Origin: Eledone cirrhosa
Lineage: Eukaryota
NCBI GenBank assembly: GCA_964016885.1
Contig: OZ024741.1
Coordinates: 344,596,001 to 344,660,000 of the forward strand
DNA: 64,000 nucleotides
Reading direction: 5' to 3'
The notes beneath the pieces were generated by a model that saw only the letters and a list, made by a program, of their open reading frames with translations, did not search any database and had not been told where the DNA came from. The position numbers were made by a program, and so were the translations under genes. This document shows, piece by piece, positions 1,656 to 53,240 of the stretch (its first letter is position 1; each line of letters starts with the position of its first letter).

Positions 1656-1663
1656 ACTGAGCG

Positions 1664-3169
1664 AAAAAGTGGCTTTTCTACATGTTTGACTAGCTAAAAA
1701 CAACAGCAAGTGACTTGTACATGTTTGACTAGCTAAAAACAACAGCAAGTGACTTGTATACATGTTTGACTAGCTAAAAAACACCAGCAAGTGGCTTTTC
1801 TACATGTTTGACTAGCTAAAAACAACAGCAAGTGACTTGTATACATGTTTGACTAGCTAAAAAACACCAGCAAGTGGCTTTTCTACATGTTTGACTAGCT
1901 AAAAAACACCAGCAAGTGGCTTTTCTACATGTTTGACTAGCTAAAAAACAACAGCAAGTGGCTTTTCTACATGTTTGACTAGCTAAAAAAGAACAGCAAG
2001 TGGCTTGTATACATGTTTGACTAGCTAAAAAACAACAGCAAGTGGCTTTTCTACATGTTGACTAGCTAAAAAACAACAGCAAGTGGCTTTTCTACATGTT
2101 TGACTAGCTAAAAAACAACAGCAAGTGGCTTGTATACATGTTTGACTAGCTAAAAAACAACAGCAAGTGACTTGTATACATGTTTGACTAGCTAAAAACA
2201 ACAGCAAGTGACTTGTATACATGTTTGACTAGCTAAAAAACAACAGCAAGTGACTTGTATACATGTTTGACTAGCTAAAAAACAACAGCAAGTGGCTTTT
2301 CTACATGTTTGACTAGCTAAAAAACAACAGCAAGTGACTTGTATACATGTTTGACTAGCTAAAAAACAAGAGCAAGTAGCTTTTCTACATGTTTGACTAG
2401 CTAAAAAACAACAGCAAGTGAGTTGTATACATGTTTGACTAGCTAAAAAACAACAGCAAGTGACTTGTATACATGTTTGACTAGCTAAAAAACAACAGCA
2501 AGTGGCTTTTCTACATGTTTGACTAGCTAAAAAACAACAGCAAGTGACTTGTATACATGTTTGACTAGCTAAAAAACAATAGCAAGTGACTTGTATACAT
2601 GTTTGACTAGCTAAAAGCAACAACAAGTGACTTGTATACATGTTTGACTAGCTAAAAAACAACAGCAAGTGGCTTGTATACATGTTTGACTAGCTAAAAA
2701 CAACAGCAAGTGGCTTGTATACATGTTTGACTAGCTAAAAAACAACAGCAAGTGGCTTGTATACATGTTTGACTAGCTAAAAAACAATAGCAAGTGACTT
2801 GTATACATGTTTGACTAGCTAAAAACAACAGCAGGTGGTTTGTATACATGTTTGACTAGCTAAAAAACAACAGCAAGTGGCTTGTATACATGTTTGACTA
2901 GCTAAAAAACAACAGCAAGTGGCTTGTACCTGTTTGACTAGCTAACAAACAAGAGCAAGTGGCTTTTCTACATGTTTGACGAGCTAAAAAACAACAGCAA
3001 GTGGCTTGTATACATGTTTGACTAGCTAAAAAACAACAGCAAGTGGCTTGTATACATGTTTGACTAGCTAAAAAACAACAGCAAGGGCTTGTATACATGT
3101 TTGACTAGCTAAAAAACAACAGCAAGTGGCTTTTCTACACATTTGACTAGCTAAAAACAACAGCAAGTG
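1664..3169. repeat. 42-bp minisatellite, about 36 copies
   Basis: Unit CTAGCTAAAAAACAACAGCAAGTGGCTTGTATACATGTTTGA with two main variants (GGCTTTTCTAC / GACTTGTATAC) and A-tract length variation. Confidence 0.95.
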
Positions 3170-3290
3170 TCCCTCAGATTTCATAACACCAGACTGGAGA
3201 GAAATGAAGCAGCCATGCTTCATTGGATGTGCAATGTAAATGTGAAAGAAAAGCAAAACTTTGATGAACTGAGCGAGGAGCTGGTTTTAA

Positions 3291-4453: not shown

Positions 4454-4549
4454 CCAAGGTCATGATAAATCCTCTACTTCCATTAATATATATATATACA
4501 TACATATACACATGTTATGATTCTTTAGTGTTAGTATATATATATATAT

Positions 4550-7500
4550 ATATGAATGTATATATAGTGTATTTGGTAATACACTGTATGCTTAATTAAA
4601 AGCATTTTCAAGACCTTACACTATTGTTTTAAAGTAGTGACTATATCACTTAATTCTTTTTTCAACAAAGGGAGATAAGCTGATTATATTGATTATACTT
4701 TGATTATACTGATTATACTTTGTGTTGAAAAAAGAAGTGACATAGTCACTACTTTAAAACTCATAGCGAATGGTCTTCAAAATGATTTTGATTAAGCATA
4801 CAGTGTATATACCAAATACACTATATATACAGTGTATATACCAAATACACTATATATACATTCATATATACATCACTATTTCAGAGCACCAATTCTAATT
4901 TTCAATTTTTGCTGGACTGGCAACTGCTCAGTTCCTGATTATTACTGGAATTCTATAAGAATCCAACATTCATAATTTTTCAACAGACAAGGGGAGTGCT
5001 AAGCTCTGTGGAATACCAACAGTATGAAACAGAGATCTGTCAGCTTATCTCCCTTTGTTTGTTGAAAAAAGAAGTGACATAGTCACTACTTTAAAACAAT
5101 AGCGTAAGGTCTTCAAAATGCTTTTAATTAAGCATACAGTGTATTACCAAATATACTATATATACATTCATATACCAGATAGAAAAATGCGTACAGCAAA
5201 AAAAAGTAATATTGTTGGAATATAAACCTTTAAAAATACAGGACAAGAAACTAAAATAAAACTTTAAAAGAATAGGACAAGAAACTAAGATAAAACTTTA
5301 AAAGAATAGGACAAGAAACTAAGATAAAACTTTAAAGAATTGGACAAGAAATAAAAAATTTTACAATAATATTAGAGGCAAAATTTTTATTGGTAAAAAA
5401 TCGAGTTCCACATTCATAGGGTTCCACATTCAGAGGTCGTCGTCAGACCGGGGGATCATTTGATCCTGGTTTGAACACCAATTAGGCCATAACCATAGCC
5501 CTATTTCATCATTCGGCGACACGCCTCATGTGTCATGCATAATGTGAATGGACCCATGGGCCCATGAGCACAGATCTTGAGCAGCAGCAGACGGTCTTGT
5601 CGTCCCGCTCATCCTTGATCTTGACCAACCCGTCCATATTCTCCTTGCATCTTGTCCTTGAGTTCAAGTCCGGCAGTCCAGATGAATGCGTGCCACAGCT
5701 TTCTGGTACAGGAAGGGGGAGCAGGAGGACTGGAGGGATGACGGGACGTGACTTCATCAGTTATCTCCACGATTATCTCAGACACCCAATGCCATTGATG
5801 AGAGGTGATCCAATGTGTGAGTATGTAACTAATCTTATAGAAGTTGTTATCGACCACCTGGCTTTTAGTGACATTTGACTGATTTGACTGATAATGATGT
5901 ATTTTTAAAAAGTATGTGTACATTCTTGTTACTATTTTAAGGCAATGCAAGCAACAACTATTTAATAAAATTTAAATTTAAAAATGACCATTGTGCATTA
6001 CTAGTATGATGACATTTTATTAAGTCACAAAATTAGTCAGTCAGCCATAGAACAAGGATCAGGTGGCAAAAACATTGGCAAAAATTTGTGTCAATTTAAG
6101 ATTTCCAACATTGTTCAAATGAATCATATCTGGTTTGAAGTCAGATTTGTCAAATTTTGACCAATTTTCAATGTTGTGAAGATTGGGCAAGTTCAATTTT
6201 TGAATCATTTCTTTCATGCAGTAATTAAACTTTTCCAAACGAGAATTTCTCTTGCCCAAGTCATTTTTATTTTCAATTACACTTTGTGGACGTGGAATGA
6301 CACCACTGTAGAAAATGGGTGTACAGTGGTGCTTTTCCGCTATTTTCTGTAGCCTTGCAAAGAGACCCCTGTTTTTCCGGTTTTGTGCCTCGAATGGGCA
6401 CTTTGTCCTTAATTTACAAATAAATGATTAATAAAAAATACTTGGGCAAAAATTATTGTATTACTTTGCACAGCTTTGTAGTGCCAACGGTGCGACGAGG
6501 ATTCAGATCATTAGAGCCGACATGAACCACCAATACTTTCACAAAAGGACAACAGATAACAATGTTGGCGATTAACATTACCTGGCCCTGACGGGCCCCA
6601 GGTATACAAAATATCTAAGTATTTTTGTTGGTATGATAAGTAAATACATTTGAATTAATATTTTTATACCTTCTGGTCATTCGATTTCGCCACATTTCTA
6701 ATTATGGATTTGTAAAAACTGGCATGAATGTGAATTTGATCAGTCCAATTGCCCGATTTTAGTGAAAAGTTTTGATTCGAAATGGAAATACTCCATTTCC
6801 GTGCCATGGAAGAAATGAATAAGCCGATCAAAAAGCCGCGAAACATCATTTTTAATTAAGCGAAATTAGTGGATGCAAATCTCAGAAAATATTGTACACT
6901 ATTCGCACCTATCGCACTATTCGCACCTATCGGTACAAAAATATAGCGCACTATTCGCACCTATCGGTACAAAAATATAGCGCACTATTCGCACCTATTG
7001 GTACAAAAATATAGCGCACTATTCGCACCTATCAGTACAAAAAATCGCACGACTGTTAATAATACTAGAAGTGCAAACTATCTGTTGAATACCTGGTATA
7101 TGAAGAGCAACCGATACGATCGGTCGGCGATTGGTCTTGAAGAAGAATGAAGAATGAAGTGAAATTTTGGTCTGGTTGTTGTCATCGGTGTTTCGCAGAG
7201 ATGCTGGCACGAACAAAGGTGTCAGTGACACAAAGTTGTCCGCTTGAACAAAGCCATCGATGCGATTAAAAAAAATTTAACTCACATGTTTACCTATATT
7301 TTCGTAAACTATTGATAGATTGGTACAAAAAATAGCTTTGATAATAAACATAAATTTTTAACGAAGTATTTAAAAAGCATTTTAGCAGTGAAAAGTGAAG
7401 TAATGTTTCACACTGACGCAAGTAGGGCCGTTCAGAAATGATGTAGTCAATTAGGAGGAGGGGATTCGGCGATTTGACTACATTTGACTAACGTAATCAC

Positions 7501-7829
7501 AATCACAAGAGTTACGCCGAAAAAAATTCGTCATTTCTGGATTACCTCCCCTAGCGTCACGCTTACTACTCACTCACTTGAACACAAGATTTATCAGCAA
7601 ACTTTGATTATAAACTTTTTCCCGCTGGACCAAATTTCTAGATTTTTAAGCCAAAAGATGCGTAATGATGTACTGTTCATGCTCATATAAGTTTTATCTC
7701 AGTTAAATAAAGTAGAGCCGTGCTGTACTGTCGTAAACAGACGATTGCCAACGAAAACACGACAACAACAATATTACTAAACGGACTACCGTCCGTTTAG
7801 GATACATCACTATTTCAGAGCACTAATTC

Positions 7830-7833
<4 letters not shown>
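4550..7833 (-). mobile_element. Unclassified ~3.3 kb element with split direct and inverted terminal repeats carrying an SGNH esterase gene (possibly Ngaro/Crypton/DIRS-type or Penelope-related)
   Basis: Repeat A (CATCACTATTTCAGAGCAC.AATTCTAATT) at 4871 and 7805; repeat B (~130 bp) at ~4720-4870, ~5041-5175 and inverted at ~4550-4682; 10-bp hairpin 7777-7800; internal 33-bp (5238-5350) and 34-bp (6900-7045) tandems. Confidence 0.6.
6059..6807 (-). CDS. SGNH/GDSL-family hydrolase (esterase), 3 exons: 6807-6670, 6614-6465, 6400-6059; about 209 aa
   Basis: Four SGNH blocks in order across three frames joined by GT..AG introns (55 nt, ~64 nt): KSIIRNV / IFCIPGAR / VVHVGSNDL / FYSGVIPRP ... DMIHLNNVG. 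The second acceptor and the start codon are uncertain. Confidence 0.72.
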
Positions 7834-46929: not shown

Positions 46930-49299
46930 AACACTAAATCCCTCCCCCATGAAGAATGCACCTCCCAACATAGACTGATAATTAGCGACCTCATAGTCAG
47001 GACGAGACGTACTCGACAACAGAAGAGGACTATCCTCAGGAGGAAAATATGGAAGCTAAAGGACCCCACAGCCAGGAATAAATTTCAAAGCATATTATTT
47101 GATGCTTTCGACAGTAAGGAAGAACATTTAGAGTCGGACAATATAGAGGGAGAGTGGGAATTTCTGAAAGCAAACCTGCTGTTGGCGACAGACGAGGTCT
47201 GTGGCTGGAGCAGGCCTGTAGGCAGGAGGAGAGTAACATGGTGGTGGAACAGTAAGGTGGAGGGGTCAATTAAGGCCAAAAAGCAGGCTTGGAAAGTATG
47301 GCGGGATGGGGGAAGTAGAGAGGACTATCAAGTGGCCAGGAGGGAAGCTAGGAGACAAGTGTACTTAGCAAGAAGGGAAGCTGAGGAAAGAAAGTTCAAG
47401 CATGTTCTACAACGCGATGACCAAAAACGTGAGGTGTTCAGGATTGCTAGGCAATGCGTCAAGGAAAACCGTGATATTGTCGGGGAGAAGTGTGTACTAA
47501 ACGACGATGGCACACTTGCCATCACCGACGCTGATAAGAAGGTAGCTTGGAAGTGTCACTATGAAAGGCTTCTAAATGAGGAGAATAATTGGGAGAAAGG
47601 CAGTCTCCCCCATATCGACCCAATAGAGGGACCAGCAGTGTTAGTCGAGGGGAGTATAATAAGTAAGGCAATCAAGGATATGAAGACTGGTAAGGCGGCT
47701 GGGCCTTCGGAAATAGTTGCTGAGATGCTGAAGGCATCTGGCACGGTGGGACACACCATGGTCACCCGCATAGTTAACCAAGTCGTACAGAACGGGGTTG
47801 TTCCGAAGGACTGGCATAGCAGCATCATCGTTAACTGTTATAAGGGTAAAGGAGACGCCCTAGATAGGAGTAACTATAGAGGCATTAAATTAATCGACCA
47901 GGTCATGAAGGTCACGGAAAGAGTAATAGCGCAACTAATCAGAGAGAGAATTGACCTAGATGAAATGCAGTTCGGGTTTGTGTCAGGCAAAAGTACCACA
48001 GACGCTCTTTTCATAGTACGACAACTACAGGAGAAGTACCTAGCTAAAGGTAAACCCCTCTACTTAGCTTTTGTCGACTTGGAGAAAGCCTTCGACAGAG
48101 TCCCCCGCTCCATTATCTGGTGGGCTCTTAGAAAACTAGGCGTTGACGAATGGCTTGTGAGGGCTATACAAGCCATGTATAAAGAAACAGTCAGCAAGGT
48201 TAGAATTAACAACGAATATAGTGAAGAGTTTAGCGTAAAAGTCGGCGTCCATCAGGGCTCTGTTCTCAGTCCACTACTATTTATTATTGCCCTTCAGGCT
48301 ATAACAGAGGAGTTCAAGACAGGCTGCCCATGGGAACTCCTATACGCAGACGACCTGACACTCATAGCGGAATCAATGGCCGAGCTAGAGAAGAAATTCC
48401 AAACATGGAAGCACGGCCTAGAGTCAAAAGGACTTAAAATTAACCTGGCTAAGACCAAAGTACTAGTTTGTAGGAAAGAAAACAAGGCGGCGGTCCCTTC
48501 TGGGAAATGGTCGTGCTCGGTGTGTAGGAAAGGCGTAGGTAGAAACTCCATTTTATGTCCTAAATGCAAAGTATGGGTGCATAAAAGATGTAGTGGGATC
48601 ACAGGTAAGCTAACTAAGAACATAGATTTTACATGTGGCCGGTGCTCTGGTGCAATAAGTAGCAGCAAGTGCCCACAAACTACTAGCTCTTTCAATTGCG
48701 CAGAGGGTTCTATAGAAATAGTGGACAGCTTCCGTTACCTGGGCGATAAAATCAGCAGTGGGGGAGGGTGCTCTGAAAGTACTGTAGCTAGAGTCAGAAC
48801 TGGTTGGAAAAAGTTCAGAGAGCTTATACCACTATTAGCTGCTAAAGGGTTCTCACTAAAAATGAAAGGCAGGTTGTACGATGCCTGCATACGAACAGCA
48901 ATGCTGCATGGCAGTGAGACCTGGGCATTGTGTGCAGAGGATATACGCAGACTAGAGAGGAACGAAGCTTGCATGCTCCGCTGGATGTGTAACAGTAATA
49001 TACGTGAACGGCAAAGCATAAACGAACTAAGGAATAAATTAGAGATAAGAGGGATCAGATGTTGTTTACTCGAGAGAAGGCTACGTTGGTATGGACACGT
49101 GATGCGCATGAAAGTCGATAGCTGTATAACAAAGTGCAGGGCAATAAAGATAGACGGTAGTCACGGAATAGGCAGACCTAGAAAAACCTGGGACGAGCTG
49201 ATAAACTCCGACATCACACACTTACACCTCTCCAAGACAATGTCACTGGACCGAGACCTTTGGCGGTACTCAGTAACAGAGAAGACCCGCCTTACCTAA
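46930..49299 (+). CDS. RTE family-2 ORF, 5'-truncated at the end of the APE domain but uninterrupted through RT and C-terminus (element extends to ~49699)
   Basis: Open from NTKSLPHEECTSQHRL; RT motifs [25 protein letters not shown]. Confidence 0.95.
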   Translation, partial: NTKSLPHEECTSQHRLIISDLIVRTRRTRQQKRTILRRKIWKLKDPTARNKFQSILFDAFDSKEEHLESDNIEGEWEFLKANLLLATDEVCGWSRPVGRRRVTWWWNSKVEGSIKAKKQAWKVWRDGGSREDYQVARREARRQVYLARREAEERKFKHVLQRDDQKREVFRIARQCVKENRDIVGEKCVLNDDGTLAITDADKKVAWKCHYERLLNEENNWEKGSLPHIDPIEGPAVLVEGSIISKAIKDMKTGKAAGPSEIVAEMLKASGTVGHTMVTRIVNQVVQNGVVPKDWHSSIIVNCYKGKGDALDRSNYRGIKLIDQVMKVTERVIAQLIRERIDLDEMQFGFVSGKSTTDALFIVRQLQEKYLAKGKPLYLAFVDLEKAFDRVPRSIIWWALRKLGVDEWLVRAIQAMYKETVSKVRINNEYSEEFSVKVGVHQGSVLSPLLFIIALQAITEEFKTGCPWELLYADDLTLIAESMAELEKKFQTWKHGLESKGLKINLAKTKVLVCRKENKAAVPSGKWSCSVCRKGVGRNSILCPKCKVWVHKRCSGITGKLTKNIDFTCGRCSGAISSSKCPQTTSSFNCAEGSIEIVDSFRYLGDKISSGGGCSESTVARVRTGWKKFRELIPLLAAKGFSLKMKGRLYDACIRTAMLHGSETWALCAEDIRRLERNEACMLRWMCNSNIRERQSINELRNKLEIRGIRCCLLERRLRWYGHVMRMKVDSCITKCRAIKIDGSHGIGRPRKTWDELINSDITHLHLSKTMSLDRDLWRYSVTEKTRLT

Positions 49300-49767
49300 A
49301 TATATAGTAAAACCTACTCCAGCCAGTAGGCATCTCTAACAAAATACACCCCGTCCCACCACCCCCACCCCCACCCGATCCACACCACCCCGTTCTATGT
49401 AAAGTTATGTTGGTGCCGCGCCATCGAGGCCGAAACAAATGAGATCGTGTAGGTGTCACGACAAAAAAACACACAGTCCACGCTGTAATGTGGCCGTGTA
49501 GGCAACACGGTAAAAACCTCCCAGACCCACACTGTAAATGTGGTTGGTGTTAGGAAGGGCATCCAACTGTAGAAAACCTGCCAGACAGTCCTATGCGAGC
49601 AAGACAATCACTCTTGCCTCAAGTGGGACTACCCCCGTCCAAACCCATGCAAGCGTGGAACACGGACGTTAAACGTTGATGATGATGATGATGATGATGA
49701 TATATATATATTATGTTACATACATGCATATATATATATATATATTATATATATATATATATATATA

Positions 49768-49945
49768 ACGAAGGAAATGTGGTAAGGAACCAGGTGGACC
49801 ATAACGCACCAAAGTACTCAATACTTGAGGTAGTAGAGTGGGTAATAGGAACCAGTAAGACCCCGACAGCTGAGCTCAAGCCGTTTCGACGGCTAATAGC
49901 CGTCGAAACGGCTTGAGCTCAGCTGTTGGGGTCTTACTGGTTCCT
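49768..49945 (-). mobile_element. Penelope-like terminal fragment ending in a near-perfect ~100-bp palindrome
   Basis: TAGGAACCAGTAAGACCCC...GACGGCTA A TAGCCGTC...GGGGTCTTACTGGTTCCTA. Confidence 0.7.
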
Positions 49946-49976
49946 ATATATATATATTTTTTTTTTTTTTTTTTTT

Positions 49977-52900
49977 TAAATGACCATGCTGTAAAATGGA
50001 GGGGTAGAGAGGACCCTTGAGTCTAGTAAGACATCCTCTCTAGTGCTGGTGGCACAAATAAAAGCACCCAGTCCATGCTGTAAAGTGGCGCTGGTGTTAG
50101 GAAGGGCATCCAACCAGTGTATCAGTGCCAAAAAGCTTATCAGCACAGCAACAAAACAGCATAGAAAAATATGAAGACGTCGCATCTCAGAGTTGCAACA
50201 CTTAATGTTGGCACTCTCAGAGGTAGATCTGCTGAAATAGCGGAGATGCTGGAGAGAAGGCAGGTGGATGTGTGCTGCGTGCAAGAGGTGAGATGGAGAG
50301 GTGCCTCTGCGAGACTAGTCGTAGGCAAGCGTCTTAGCTATAAGCTATTCTGGGTAGGTAAGGATGATGGGTTAGGGGGAGTAGGCATTTTCCTGGCTGA
50401 GAAATGGATCAATAAGACAATAGAGGTAGTTCGAGTTAGTAATCGAATAATTAAGCTTAGATTAGTTGTAGGTAGGAGACTACTGACAATCATCTCGGTC
50501 TATGCTCCCCAAGCAGGCCTAGGCAAAGATGAGAAAGACTGCTTTTATGAGCAACTTTTGCAAACAACCACAATGACAGAGGACGGAGACATCGTTATGC
50601 TAGCAGGAGACTTCAATGGTCATGTTGGACAGCTCCAGGATGGTTACACTGGGGTACATGGTGGGCATGGTTACGGTTCAAGAAATGAAGAAGGAGTGAG
50701 ACTTCTTGAATTTTGTGATGCAAGTACATTGACTATTTGCAACACAAACTTCCAGAAACCTGCCAATCACCTAATAACCTACAAATCTGGTGAGCACATA
50801 AGCCAGATTGACTTCCTGCTAGTTAGGCAGCGGGACAGGCAGATAGTGTCTAATACCAAGGCATACCCTGGGGAAGAATGTACCCCACAGCATAGGTTAG
50901 TTGTTAGTGATATCTCAGTAAGCAAGAGATGGAATGAGCCATATAGGAAGGTGTGGAGAAGAAAGGTCTGGAAGCTAAAAGACCTTTCACTAAAATTCAA
51001 ATTTAGGAAAGCCCTTCAAGATGTATATGACGAAAAAGAAGACGATTTAGAGACGTATGACATAGATAATAACTGGAAGTTCTTACGTGACAACTTGCTG
51101 AAGGCTACTGATGAAACCTGTGGCTGGAGCAGAGCTCCAACCAGACAGAGAGTGACCTGGTGGTGGAACAGCAGTGTAGATAAGGCTATTAGAGACAAAA
51201 GACTAGCATGGAAGGCTTGGAATAAGGGTGGGAGTAGGGAAGAATATACAGCCACTAAGAGAGAAGCTAGACGTCAGGTGTACTTAGCACGCAGGAAGGC
51301 AGAGAGTAGGAGGTTTGCCAATGTTCTGCGACGGGAAGATCAGAGGCGTGCGGTGTTCCACATTGCAAGGCAGTGTGTCAATGCAAATCAGGATGTTGTT
51401 GGTGATAAATGTGTCCGGGATGATGCCGGTGTACTTAGTGTCACGAATGACCAGAAAAAGGAGGCCTGGAAATGTCATTATGAGAGACTGATGAATGTGG
51501 AGAACGAATGGGAGAGAGAGAAATTACCCTTGGTAGATCCGACAGAGGGACCAGCTATTGAGATTGACGAATATAGGGTCCAAGAGGCGATTAGGGAAAT
51601 GAAAAATGGTAAGGCGGCCGGACCATCGGGAATAGTTGCTGAGATGCTGAAGGCATCAGGGGACGTAGGCACTAAACTGGTTGCACGCATAATCAATCAG
51701 GCTATATATGGTGGTGTCATACCCAAAGACTGGTGCAGCAGTATTCTCATAAATTGCTACAAAGGTAAAGGGGATGCTTTGGAGAGGAGCAATTATAGGG
51801 GTATAAAACTGATAGATCAGGTTATGAAAGTGGCAGAAAGGATTTTAGCACAACTAATTAGAGAAAGGGTCAAACTAGATGAGATGCAGTTTGGTTTTGT
51901 GCCTGGGAAGAGTACAACAGATGCCCTCTTCTTGGTGAGACAAATGCAAGAGAGGTTCTTAGAGAAGAATAAGCCACTATACTTGGCTTTTGTTGACCTA
52001 GAGAAGGCCTTTGATAGGGTACCCCGATCTGTCATCTGGTGGTCCCTAAGGAAGCTGGGTGTTGAGGAATGGCTTGTAAGGACAGTGCAAACTTTGTACA
52101 GAGGTACTCTCAGTAAAGTCAGGGTAGGAATGGAGTTTAGTGAGGAATTCCAGATACAAGTAGGAGTACATCAGGGTTCGGTCCTCAGCCCGCTCTTGTT
52201 CATTATAGTCCTCCAAGCCATAACAGAGGAGTTTAAGACTGGCTGTCCATGGGAACTTCTCTATGCTGACGATCTGGCTCTTATGGCAGAATCAGTAGAG
52301 GAGCTAGAGAATAAATTCCGGCTATGGAAACAGCAGTTGGAAGCAAGAGGACTGAGAGTAAATCTAGCTAAGACAAAAGTGTTGATGAGTAGAAAAGAGG
52401 ACAAAACCCTGATTCCGTCAGGGAAATGGCCATGTTCGATATGCAGAAAAGGAACTGGCATAAATTCTATAAAATGCACACAATGTAGGTCCTGGGTACA
52501 CAAGAGATGTAGCGGGATAGCAGGCAAACTAACAGGTAGGGAGAAATATGTATGCAGTAGATGTACAGGGAAATTAGACAGTAGAAGTCGCACTGATAGA
52601 CACATTTTTCAAATGCGAGAGGGCGCTATAGAAGTGGTGGATAGCTTCCGGTACCTAGGAGATCAGATTAGCATGGGAGGAGGGTGTTCCGAGGCCATAG
52701 TATCTAGAATAAGGACGGGTTGGAAGAAGTTTAGGGAGCTGCTTCCTCTGTTGACGAAGAAGGGTTTCTCCCTGCGTACGAAAGGCCGGTTGTACGATGC
52801 CTGTGTGAGGAGCGCGATGCTGCATGGTAGTGAGACATGGGCAGCTACCGCAGAAGATATGCGACGGCTGGAGAGAAATGAGGCAAGCATGCTCCGTTGG

Positions 52901-53240
52901 ATGTGCAGTGTAAATGTGCGTGAACGACCCAGCATAAATGTGTTGAGAGAGAAACTGTGTCTGAGAGGGATAGAATGTAGTGTACGGGAGAGGAGACTGA
53001 GGTGGTATAGACATGTGATGCGCATGGAGGATGACCGATGGGTGAAGAAGTGCCAGGAAATGCCAGTTGAAGGAAGACGTAGTAGAGGTAGACCACGAAA
53101 AACATGGGCGGAGGTGGTGAGAACAGACCTCAGATCATTGAAGCTCACGGTGGAGATGACGAGGGACCGTGACGAGTGGAGAGATGCTGTGCTGAATAAG
53201 ACCCGTCCCACCCTTGCAAGCAGGGAAAAGCGGACGTAAA

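Follow-up and report, generated by a model that had tools for sequence, protein, structure and literature searches.

An esterase-like frame in Eledone cirrhosa is a decayed chimeric remnant within a non-autonomous Helitron

A 64,000-nucleotide stretch of the Eledone cirrhosa genome, hereafter the window, contains on its minus strand a frame that reads, once two small gaps are removed, as 209 open codons starting with an ATG at 6807 (6807..6059), and raises the question of whether a mobile element here carries a complete, spliced esterase gene. An earlier note, made from the letters alone, had answered yes, describing a stand-alone SGNH esterase inside an unclassified element. We find that the feature is real but was misread as complete: what a non-autonomous Helitron carries here is a chimeric remnant that has decayed. 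The 209-residue frame and its two introns had been accurately placed, and both gaps, at 6669-6615 (55 nt) and 6464-6401 (64 nt), were confirmed on the minus strand as real-looking GT-AG introns. The motifs KSII, PGA, GSND and DMIH follow one another in this order, and the same frame is open further upstream, to an ATG at 6849 that is the transposase start. In terms of the longer parent copies described below, the parts are:

6706..6849, minus strand: opening stretch of the RepHel transposase frame (~50 codons), source of the start codon and of the Ser of ‘KSII’; the long ORF begins identically in all four long copies checked
6670..6705, minus strand: what is left of parent exon 3, namely esterase block I without its GD, from comparison with the parent gene
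6615..6669, minus strand: predicted 55-nt GT-AG intron, corresponding to parent intron 3, from the sequence of copies and parent
6465..6614, minus strand: parent exon 4 with the PGA and GSND blocks; weak match to 4C1B residues 30-70
6408..6464, minus strand: predicted 57-nt GT-AG intron, corresponding to parent intron 4, with a second AG at 6401 downstream, from comparison of copies
6059..6407, minus strand: parent exon 5 with DMIH and a frame-shifting 5-bp deletion near 6366, after the usual acceptor, from the copies and Pfam Lipase_GDSL_3

The proposed SGNH kinship is modestly supported. The last exon of the window copy matches Pfam Lipase_GDSL_3 at E=0.004-0.006, under the curated cut-off; Atlas feature matches of 0.91-0.92 fall on Lipase_GDSL_2 clusters; and the middle exon has a sole match in a PDB sequence search, 4C1B (‘ORF1-encoded protein’), at E=0.35. 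PDB sequence searches with exons 1, 3 and 5 returned chance rows only, an Atlas search with exon 3 gave no usable match, and a single-exon, single-sequence structure model (pLDDT 47) gave no usable fold match. Contigs of runs X1 and X4, the kind of run being unknown, contained no joint across either intron and are uninformative on splicing.

All 40 scored genome-wide matches to the region have 99-100% identity (332 candidates, 3.0-Gb genome), which bears out the earlier view of a mobile element rather than a single-copy host gene; a search for copy number and longer copies, also proposed in the note, yielded these candidates and long copies with RepHel. About 120 of 150 scored matches span most of the last exon. 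For a closer comparison we used the window copy and the 20 best-scoring copies (n=21). The window copy and L026 have a last exon 5 bases shorter than that of the others, one of which is missing a single base. If the acceptor is the first AG, at 6408 (57-nt intron), 13 of the 21 copies have intact splice sites and an open frame of 227 codons from the upstream ATG. Since acceptor 6401 fits only the two copies with the 5-bp deletion, and the intron usually measures 57 nt, a frameshift is likely in the window copy, the acceptor at 6401 being a by-product of that deletion; the second intron was rightly recognised as GT-AG, with an acceptor that the copies do not bear out. Distinct changes from the majority sequence (21 silent, 49 missense and 4 stops in the 21 copies) look neutral-like, with pN/pS at 0.77 (p=0.33, a low-power test) and a mean divergence of 0.5%, at which 13 open copies are to be expected. 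Further deletion derivatives of 1.5-2.8 kb have the same ends (L043-L060), and one type retains a short NADAR piece.

The long parent was found via one 5′ end lying 10.5 kb from its esterase exon (locus L041-L042), which has the first 1.09 kb and the esterase in common with the short derivative. One long copy has both ends, 12.6 kb apart, and full-length relatives measure ~13 kb. The RepHel frame of L041-L042, which is frameshifted, contains Helitron_like_N (7.7e-24), DUF6570, PIF1, UvrD_C_2 and UCH, and the same domain set lies on a near-intact sister frame (1,904+507 aa, one stop). The supposedly unclassified element is therefore a member of the Helitron superfamily, by the RepHel of its same-ended long copies (not of the window copy) and by the lack of target-site duplication. 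DUF6570 scores E=1.9e-14 and 9e-18, FWR precedes Rep motif 2, and the motif itself reads RGAPH, with A between G and P, neither the S of HLE2 nor the L of HLE1. No AP endonuclease domain was found on the 2,412-aa sister frame, and no RT, DDE or tyrosine recombinase among the 10 parent and 2 sister frames scanned, which speaks against the Penelope-, Ngaro-, Crypton- or LINE-like affinities that had been considered. The 40 scored RepHel matches divide into 24 at 96-100%, 2 at 86% and 14 at 66-68% identity. RepHel is not intact in any of the eight family copies retrieved, and the copy that mobilises the family is thus not among them.

We also noted in RepHel of the family and the sister a 2A-like motif, GCVELNPGP, after a hydrophobic stretch (L041:1829-1855; L091 frame residues ~125-133), and a similar NPGP in the RepHel of the 66% relative; the 2A consensus has D where GCVELNPGP has C. 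A distant young RepHel family (L108/L109, G000:C2:201.84-201.86 Mb; 49% protein identity, 99% identity among its copies) is organised in the same way, with TC and a long 5′ hairpin (-21 kcal/mol), a CTAG end and the inner inverted copy. Near-identical canonical Helitron Rep matches recur every ~100-200 kb at G000:C20:3.5-5.2 Mb and C27:13-15.5 Mb, which suggests very large tandem units.

In the short derivative, the transposase frame passes after ~50 codons into the esterase just past GD, with a 1-base overlap, and this joint is the same in 21 of 21 short copies. ‘KSII’ stands in place of GDS because the joint falls after GD: block I of the window copy reads KS, and its Ser is a transposase codon. 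The gene is thus not complete, its first exon being a transposase/esterase chimera that has lost the G-D of block I, and the short form appears to have arisen by a 9-kb deletion that fused transposase codons 1-50 to the esterase. Taken together, the gene is very probably the 3′ remnant of a Helitron-carried, five-exon NADAR-SGNH gene, fused by that deletion to the transposase start in a multi-copy derivative that is likely mobilised in trans, with the window copy likely making no working enzyme. Directly observed are RepHel-UCH followed by NADAR-SGNH in a same-ended parent of ~12.6 kb, the joint of the derivative, insertion between A and T without duplication beyond chance, and the additional 5-bp and 1-kb deletions. 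The window copy cautions that what looks like a complete gene can be the product of deletions.

The in-frame fusion, with Ser exactly at the catalytic position, counts against a decayed remnant. It would suit a working chimeric gene in which the transposase promoter and a hydrophobic N-terminus drive a shortened esterase that favours the spread of the derivative or serves the host, and the retained G, N, D and H, the 13 open copies of 21 and the ~120 copies of the last exon point the same way. Yet the G-D and the first strand of block I have been replaced, the changes among copies are neutral-like, stops included, derivatives of 1.5-2.5 kb that lack the full esterase have spread as well (18 hand-picked, non-random loci), and the window copy has a frameshifting deletion, so that we consider a working chimera improbable.

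The esterase is also not stand-alone, as had been supposed: in the long copies it forms the C-terminal half of a NADAR-SGNH gene that lies downstream of RepHel and comprises five exons and four predicted GT-AG introns, three of 54-57 nt and one of ~215 nt. Intron GC is 0.18-0.29 against 0.34-0.45 in exons, and one of the four complete copies of the cargo gene has 335 open codons. NADAR profile positions 4-67 and 82-115 fall, in order, on exons 1 and 2 (E=0.002, 0.07 and 6e-4, all under the cut-off). A normal GDS block closes exon 3, exons 4 and 5 correspond to those of the window frame, and GDS, G, GxND and DxxH occur in order, all four, in exons 3-5 of L044. All family matches of this putative two-domain cargo are weak and lie below curated cut-offs. 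The GDS exon is kept at seven loci, none of them whole with all motifs: the only fully open five-exon copy has N for D, three are frameshifted, one is split by nested insertions and one codon short at DxxH, one lacks exon 1 and has an intact esterase half, and one lacks exon 1 and has a damaged exon 4. After splicing, the S-G and G-N spacings are 18 and 29, compared with 22 and 30 in the ZfL2-1 esterase; the N-to-D spacing is 110 compared with 84, which suggests that the limits of intron 4 may be off. Parent intron 2 (L042:487-703, ~215 nt) resembles an intron of ~50 nt that has grown through an insert rich in A/T runs.

One could also take the gaps for decayed coding or spacer DNA and the cargo for what remains of a LINE ORF1 that is not spliced. 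In favour of this, no spliced form came to light, and SGNH domains are reported from CR1/L2 ORF1 (PMC3905857) and NADAR from oyster Tx1 ORF1 (PMC12477816). However, four of four gaps are GT-AG and AT-rich, three of them within 54-57 nt, their removal leaves 335 open codons with the profile parts in order, and with intron 3 retained the S-G spacing would be twice as long and the reading frame would be lost. This makes an unspliced relic very improbable.

The boundaries of the element were read from its ends across copies, with end statistics drawn from 50 loci:

5175..7802, minus strand: non-autonomous Helitron copy, 2,628 bp, from ends and lengths across copies and from mapping to the parent and L038
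7777..7802, minus strand: 5′ end, TC followed by a hairpin with a 10-bp stem, A before it; A before TC in 46 of the 46 ends found
7766..7777, minus strand: 12-bp subterminal inverted repeat, 5′ copy
5206..5217, minus strand: 12-bp subterminal inverted repeat, 3′ copy
5175..5390, minus strand: 3′ terminal arm ending in CTGG, T next; T after CTRR in 37 of 37 ends
4849..4900, minus strand: empty copy of the small host repeat that hosts the insertion, equal to the joined flanks, no duplication

From TC and hairpin to CTGG, the family form of the short derivative measures ~3.65 kb (range about 3.5-3.7 kb), and another 1.0 kb is missing from the window copy. The 26-base 5′ end has 317 exact genomic matches (control 0); its hairpin reaches -10.2 kcal/mol, with a paired change in the sister subfamily, and the 3′ hairpin is weak, at -1.2 kcal/mol at best. 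Full copies contain, ~1 kb inside, a ~200-bp inverted duplicate of the 3′ end, which is deleted in the window copy and is present in the family, the sister, the 66% relative and the family at 49% protein identity. The 12-bp inverted repeat pair was looked for in the 66% relative and not found, and the sister subfamily ends in CTAG. Flank overlaps in 34 two-ended copies match those of shuffled pairs, and a target-site duplication is absent at 8 of 11 sites outside TA|TA, TA-run sites being ambiguous singly. That the unit is a TIR-type DNA transposon or Penelope-like retroelement with RepHel as a nested passenger, as the 12-bp subterminal inverted repeats, the 200-bp inverted repeat at one end, the frequent TA-run sites and the likeness of the esterase to LINE ORF1 esterases might suggest, is largely refuted and scarcely credible, since neither end is an inverted repeat of the other, duplication is not above chance, the insertion site is a fixed A^T, RepHel is flanked by ends of this layout also in families at 86% DNA, 66% DNA and 49% protein identity, and the scanned parent frames contain no RT, DDE or recombinase family. 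The family is a young Helitron.

Several further observations concern these ends and their surroundings. L030 and the window copy (flanks 4549-5174 and 7803-7833) are both inserted in the same small host repeat, at an identical TA site. Of 37 copies, 2 have the segment between the 200-bp 3′ inverted repeats in reversed orientation (L085/L086, L095/L096), and of 46 ends, 1 has the 4-base loop of the 5′ hairpin reversed (L093/L094). Ngaro-type split repeats, first considered because of a 30-bp direct repeat, were rejected, as this direct repeat is part of the host repeat. Elsewhere in the window, a 42-bp tandem satellite of ~35 copies occupies 1660-3290, and a 6-kb region (47001-53000) has raised GC (0.44-0.47) and strand skew, possibly reflecting another element.

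Helitrons are described as being copied by RepHel through a DNA intermediate, with no target duplication (PMC11417382, PMC6431247). By analogy with other Helitrons, RepHel would nick at the 5′ TC, peel off one strand and end at CTRR, where the ~200-bp inverted 3′ copy, in place of a short hairpin, may act in termination. The short derivative, needing only its ends, was likely moved in trans by rolling-circle transposition, and the chimera would have spread as a passenger; its introns would survive because the element copies through DNA.

As for the origin of the cargo, the 86% sister subfamily has none at the corresponding place, the 66% relative has only ~640 bp there, and tblastn of five more distant RepHel loci with the cargo gave no match. 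The simplest reading is that the cargo was gained in this lineage, because the sister and the more distant relatives appear to lack it. Searches for a host donor gene gave, for the NADAR family, two matches among four candidates, both inside the element, and, for exon 3, an eighth match (E=0.18) without gene-like context, a search that could miss a spliced, diverged donor. Protein collections searched with the last exon and NADAR exon 1, short queries that make for weak evidence, contained no relative. Since both domains are known from retroelement ORFs, a LINE-derived ancestor of the cargo is plausible.

How does the element compare with known Helitrons? Of the canonical HLE1 traits it has the 5′ TC, the 3′ CTRR and A^T insertion, and lacks a stable short 3′ hairpin and the L in RGLPH without DUF6570. 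It shares with HLE2 the DUF6570 domain, F/Y-w-R before Rep motif 2 and short (12-16 nt) inverted repeats, here the 12-bp pair, and lacks T^T insertion and a 3′ stem-loop, its strong stem-loop lying at the 5′ end relative to the ORF; the AP endonuclease domain of a strict Helentron is absent. Because each of canonical HLE1, canonical HLE2 and Helentron has a defining feature that is missing here, we assign the element to none of the three; judged by these features, the transposase is of HLE2 type and the ends are HLE1-like. The same mix is described for the proto-Helentron of Phytophthora (PMC4067079, PMC11417382). Proto-Helentron and the HLE2-reverse elements FoHeli3-5 likewise have a DUF6570 RepHel without endonuclease and a 5′ stem-loop upstream of a ~12-nt inverted repeat, and proto-Helentron also shows A^T insertion and a 3′ CTAG/CTRR (PMC4067079, PMC11417382, PMC5148889). 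Unlike these, the Eledone element resides in an animal, begins with TC rather than TT, has its repeat directly beside the hairpin, and carries UCH, the ~200-bp inverted 3′ copy and a different cargo. HLE2 subgroups c/d share DUF6570 and UCH in the transposase, but are reported mostly from lungfish and axolotl, with HLE2 insertion generally T^T (PMC11417382), the comparison here being one of traits. HELIANO counted proto-Helentron-like elements in 0 of 404 genomes (PMC4067079, PMC11417382, PMC5148889), and the literature covered, which excludes Repbase and subscription papers, described no animal HLE2 clade with TC...CTRR, A^T ends and a 200-bp inverted 3′ copy, nor was there a matching report of a Helitron with 2A/StopGo, or with flip-flop, panhandle or inverted duplication. 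The end layout extends to an animal a proto-Helentron-like structure reported only from Phytophthora.

NADARs are reported to reverse guanine ADP-ribosylation of DNA (PMC11125620). One could speculate that proto-Helentron-like transposons of an animal clade use a 200-bp 3′ fold-back, and not a short hairpin, as the point at which replication stops, and that the NADAR-SGNH gene of one lineage serves as counter-defence, the NADAR half stripping ADP-ribose from guanines of the single-stranded intermediate and the esterase aiding membrane passage; we hold this to be doubtful as a whole, and any help that an intact cargo gene gives the transposon is a candidate role only. If it were true, the even intron length of ~55 nt and the missing host paralogue would suggest that the gene came from a species whose genome is compact. 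Because NADARs reverse this modification and Helitrons move one strand, the NADAR half lends itself to a concrete test. In the literature covered, no NADAR cargo was reported in a Helitron, although Repbase and subscription reviews, which lay outside it, may have such elements, and one HELIANO supplement has no NADAR, GDSL, SGNH or lipase entry.

With respect to the cargo, the ORF1 esterase of ZfL2-1 (PDB 4C1B; PMC3905857) has the same order of catalytic motifs, and this esterase and the NADARs of Ectocarpus Gypsy and oyster Tx1 elements are accessory domains in retroelement ORFs (PMC3905857, PMC12477816), whereas in Eledone NADAR and SGNH are fused in one predicted spliced gene on a DNA transposon. 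The closest precedent is the fish texim genes on Helitrons: texim, too, is a multi-intron SGNH gene related to CR1 ORF1 esterases and mobilised with a Helitron, with no RT (PMC4021074, Tomaszkiewicz et al. 2014). As described there, texim lies upstream of the Helitron coding region and has up to 15 exons, the link being reported only in fish (PMC4021074), whereas the Eledone gene lies downstream of RepHel, inside defined ends, with five small exons and a NADAR half, a distinction drawn from the published description. The significance of the locus rests on the parent element and not on the window copy: it provides a second case, from outside the fishes, of a Helitron that carries an SGNH gene with introns, and the pairing may therefore recur for a reason, rather than reflect one capture in fish.
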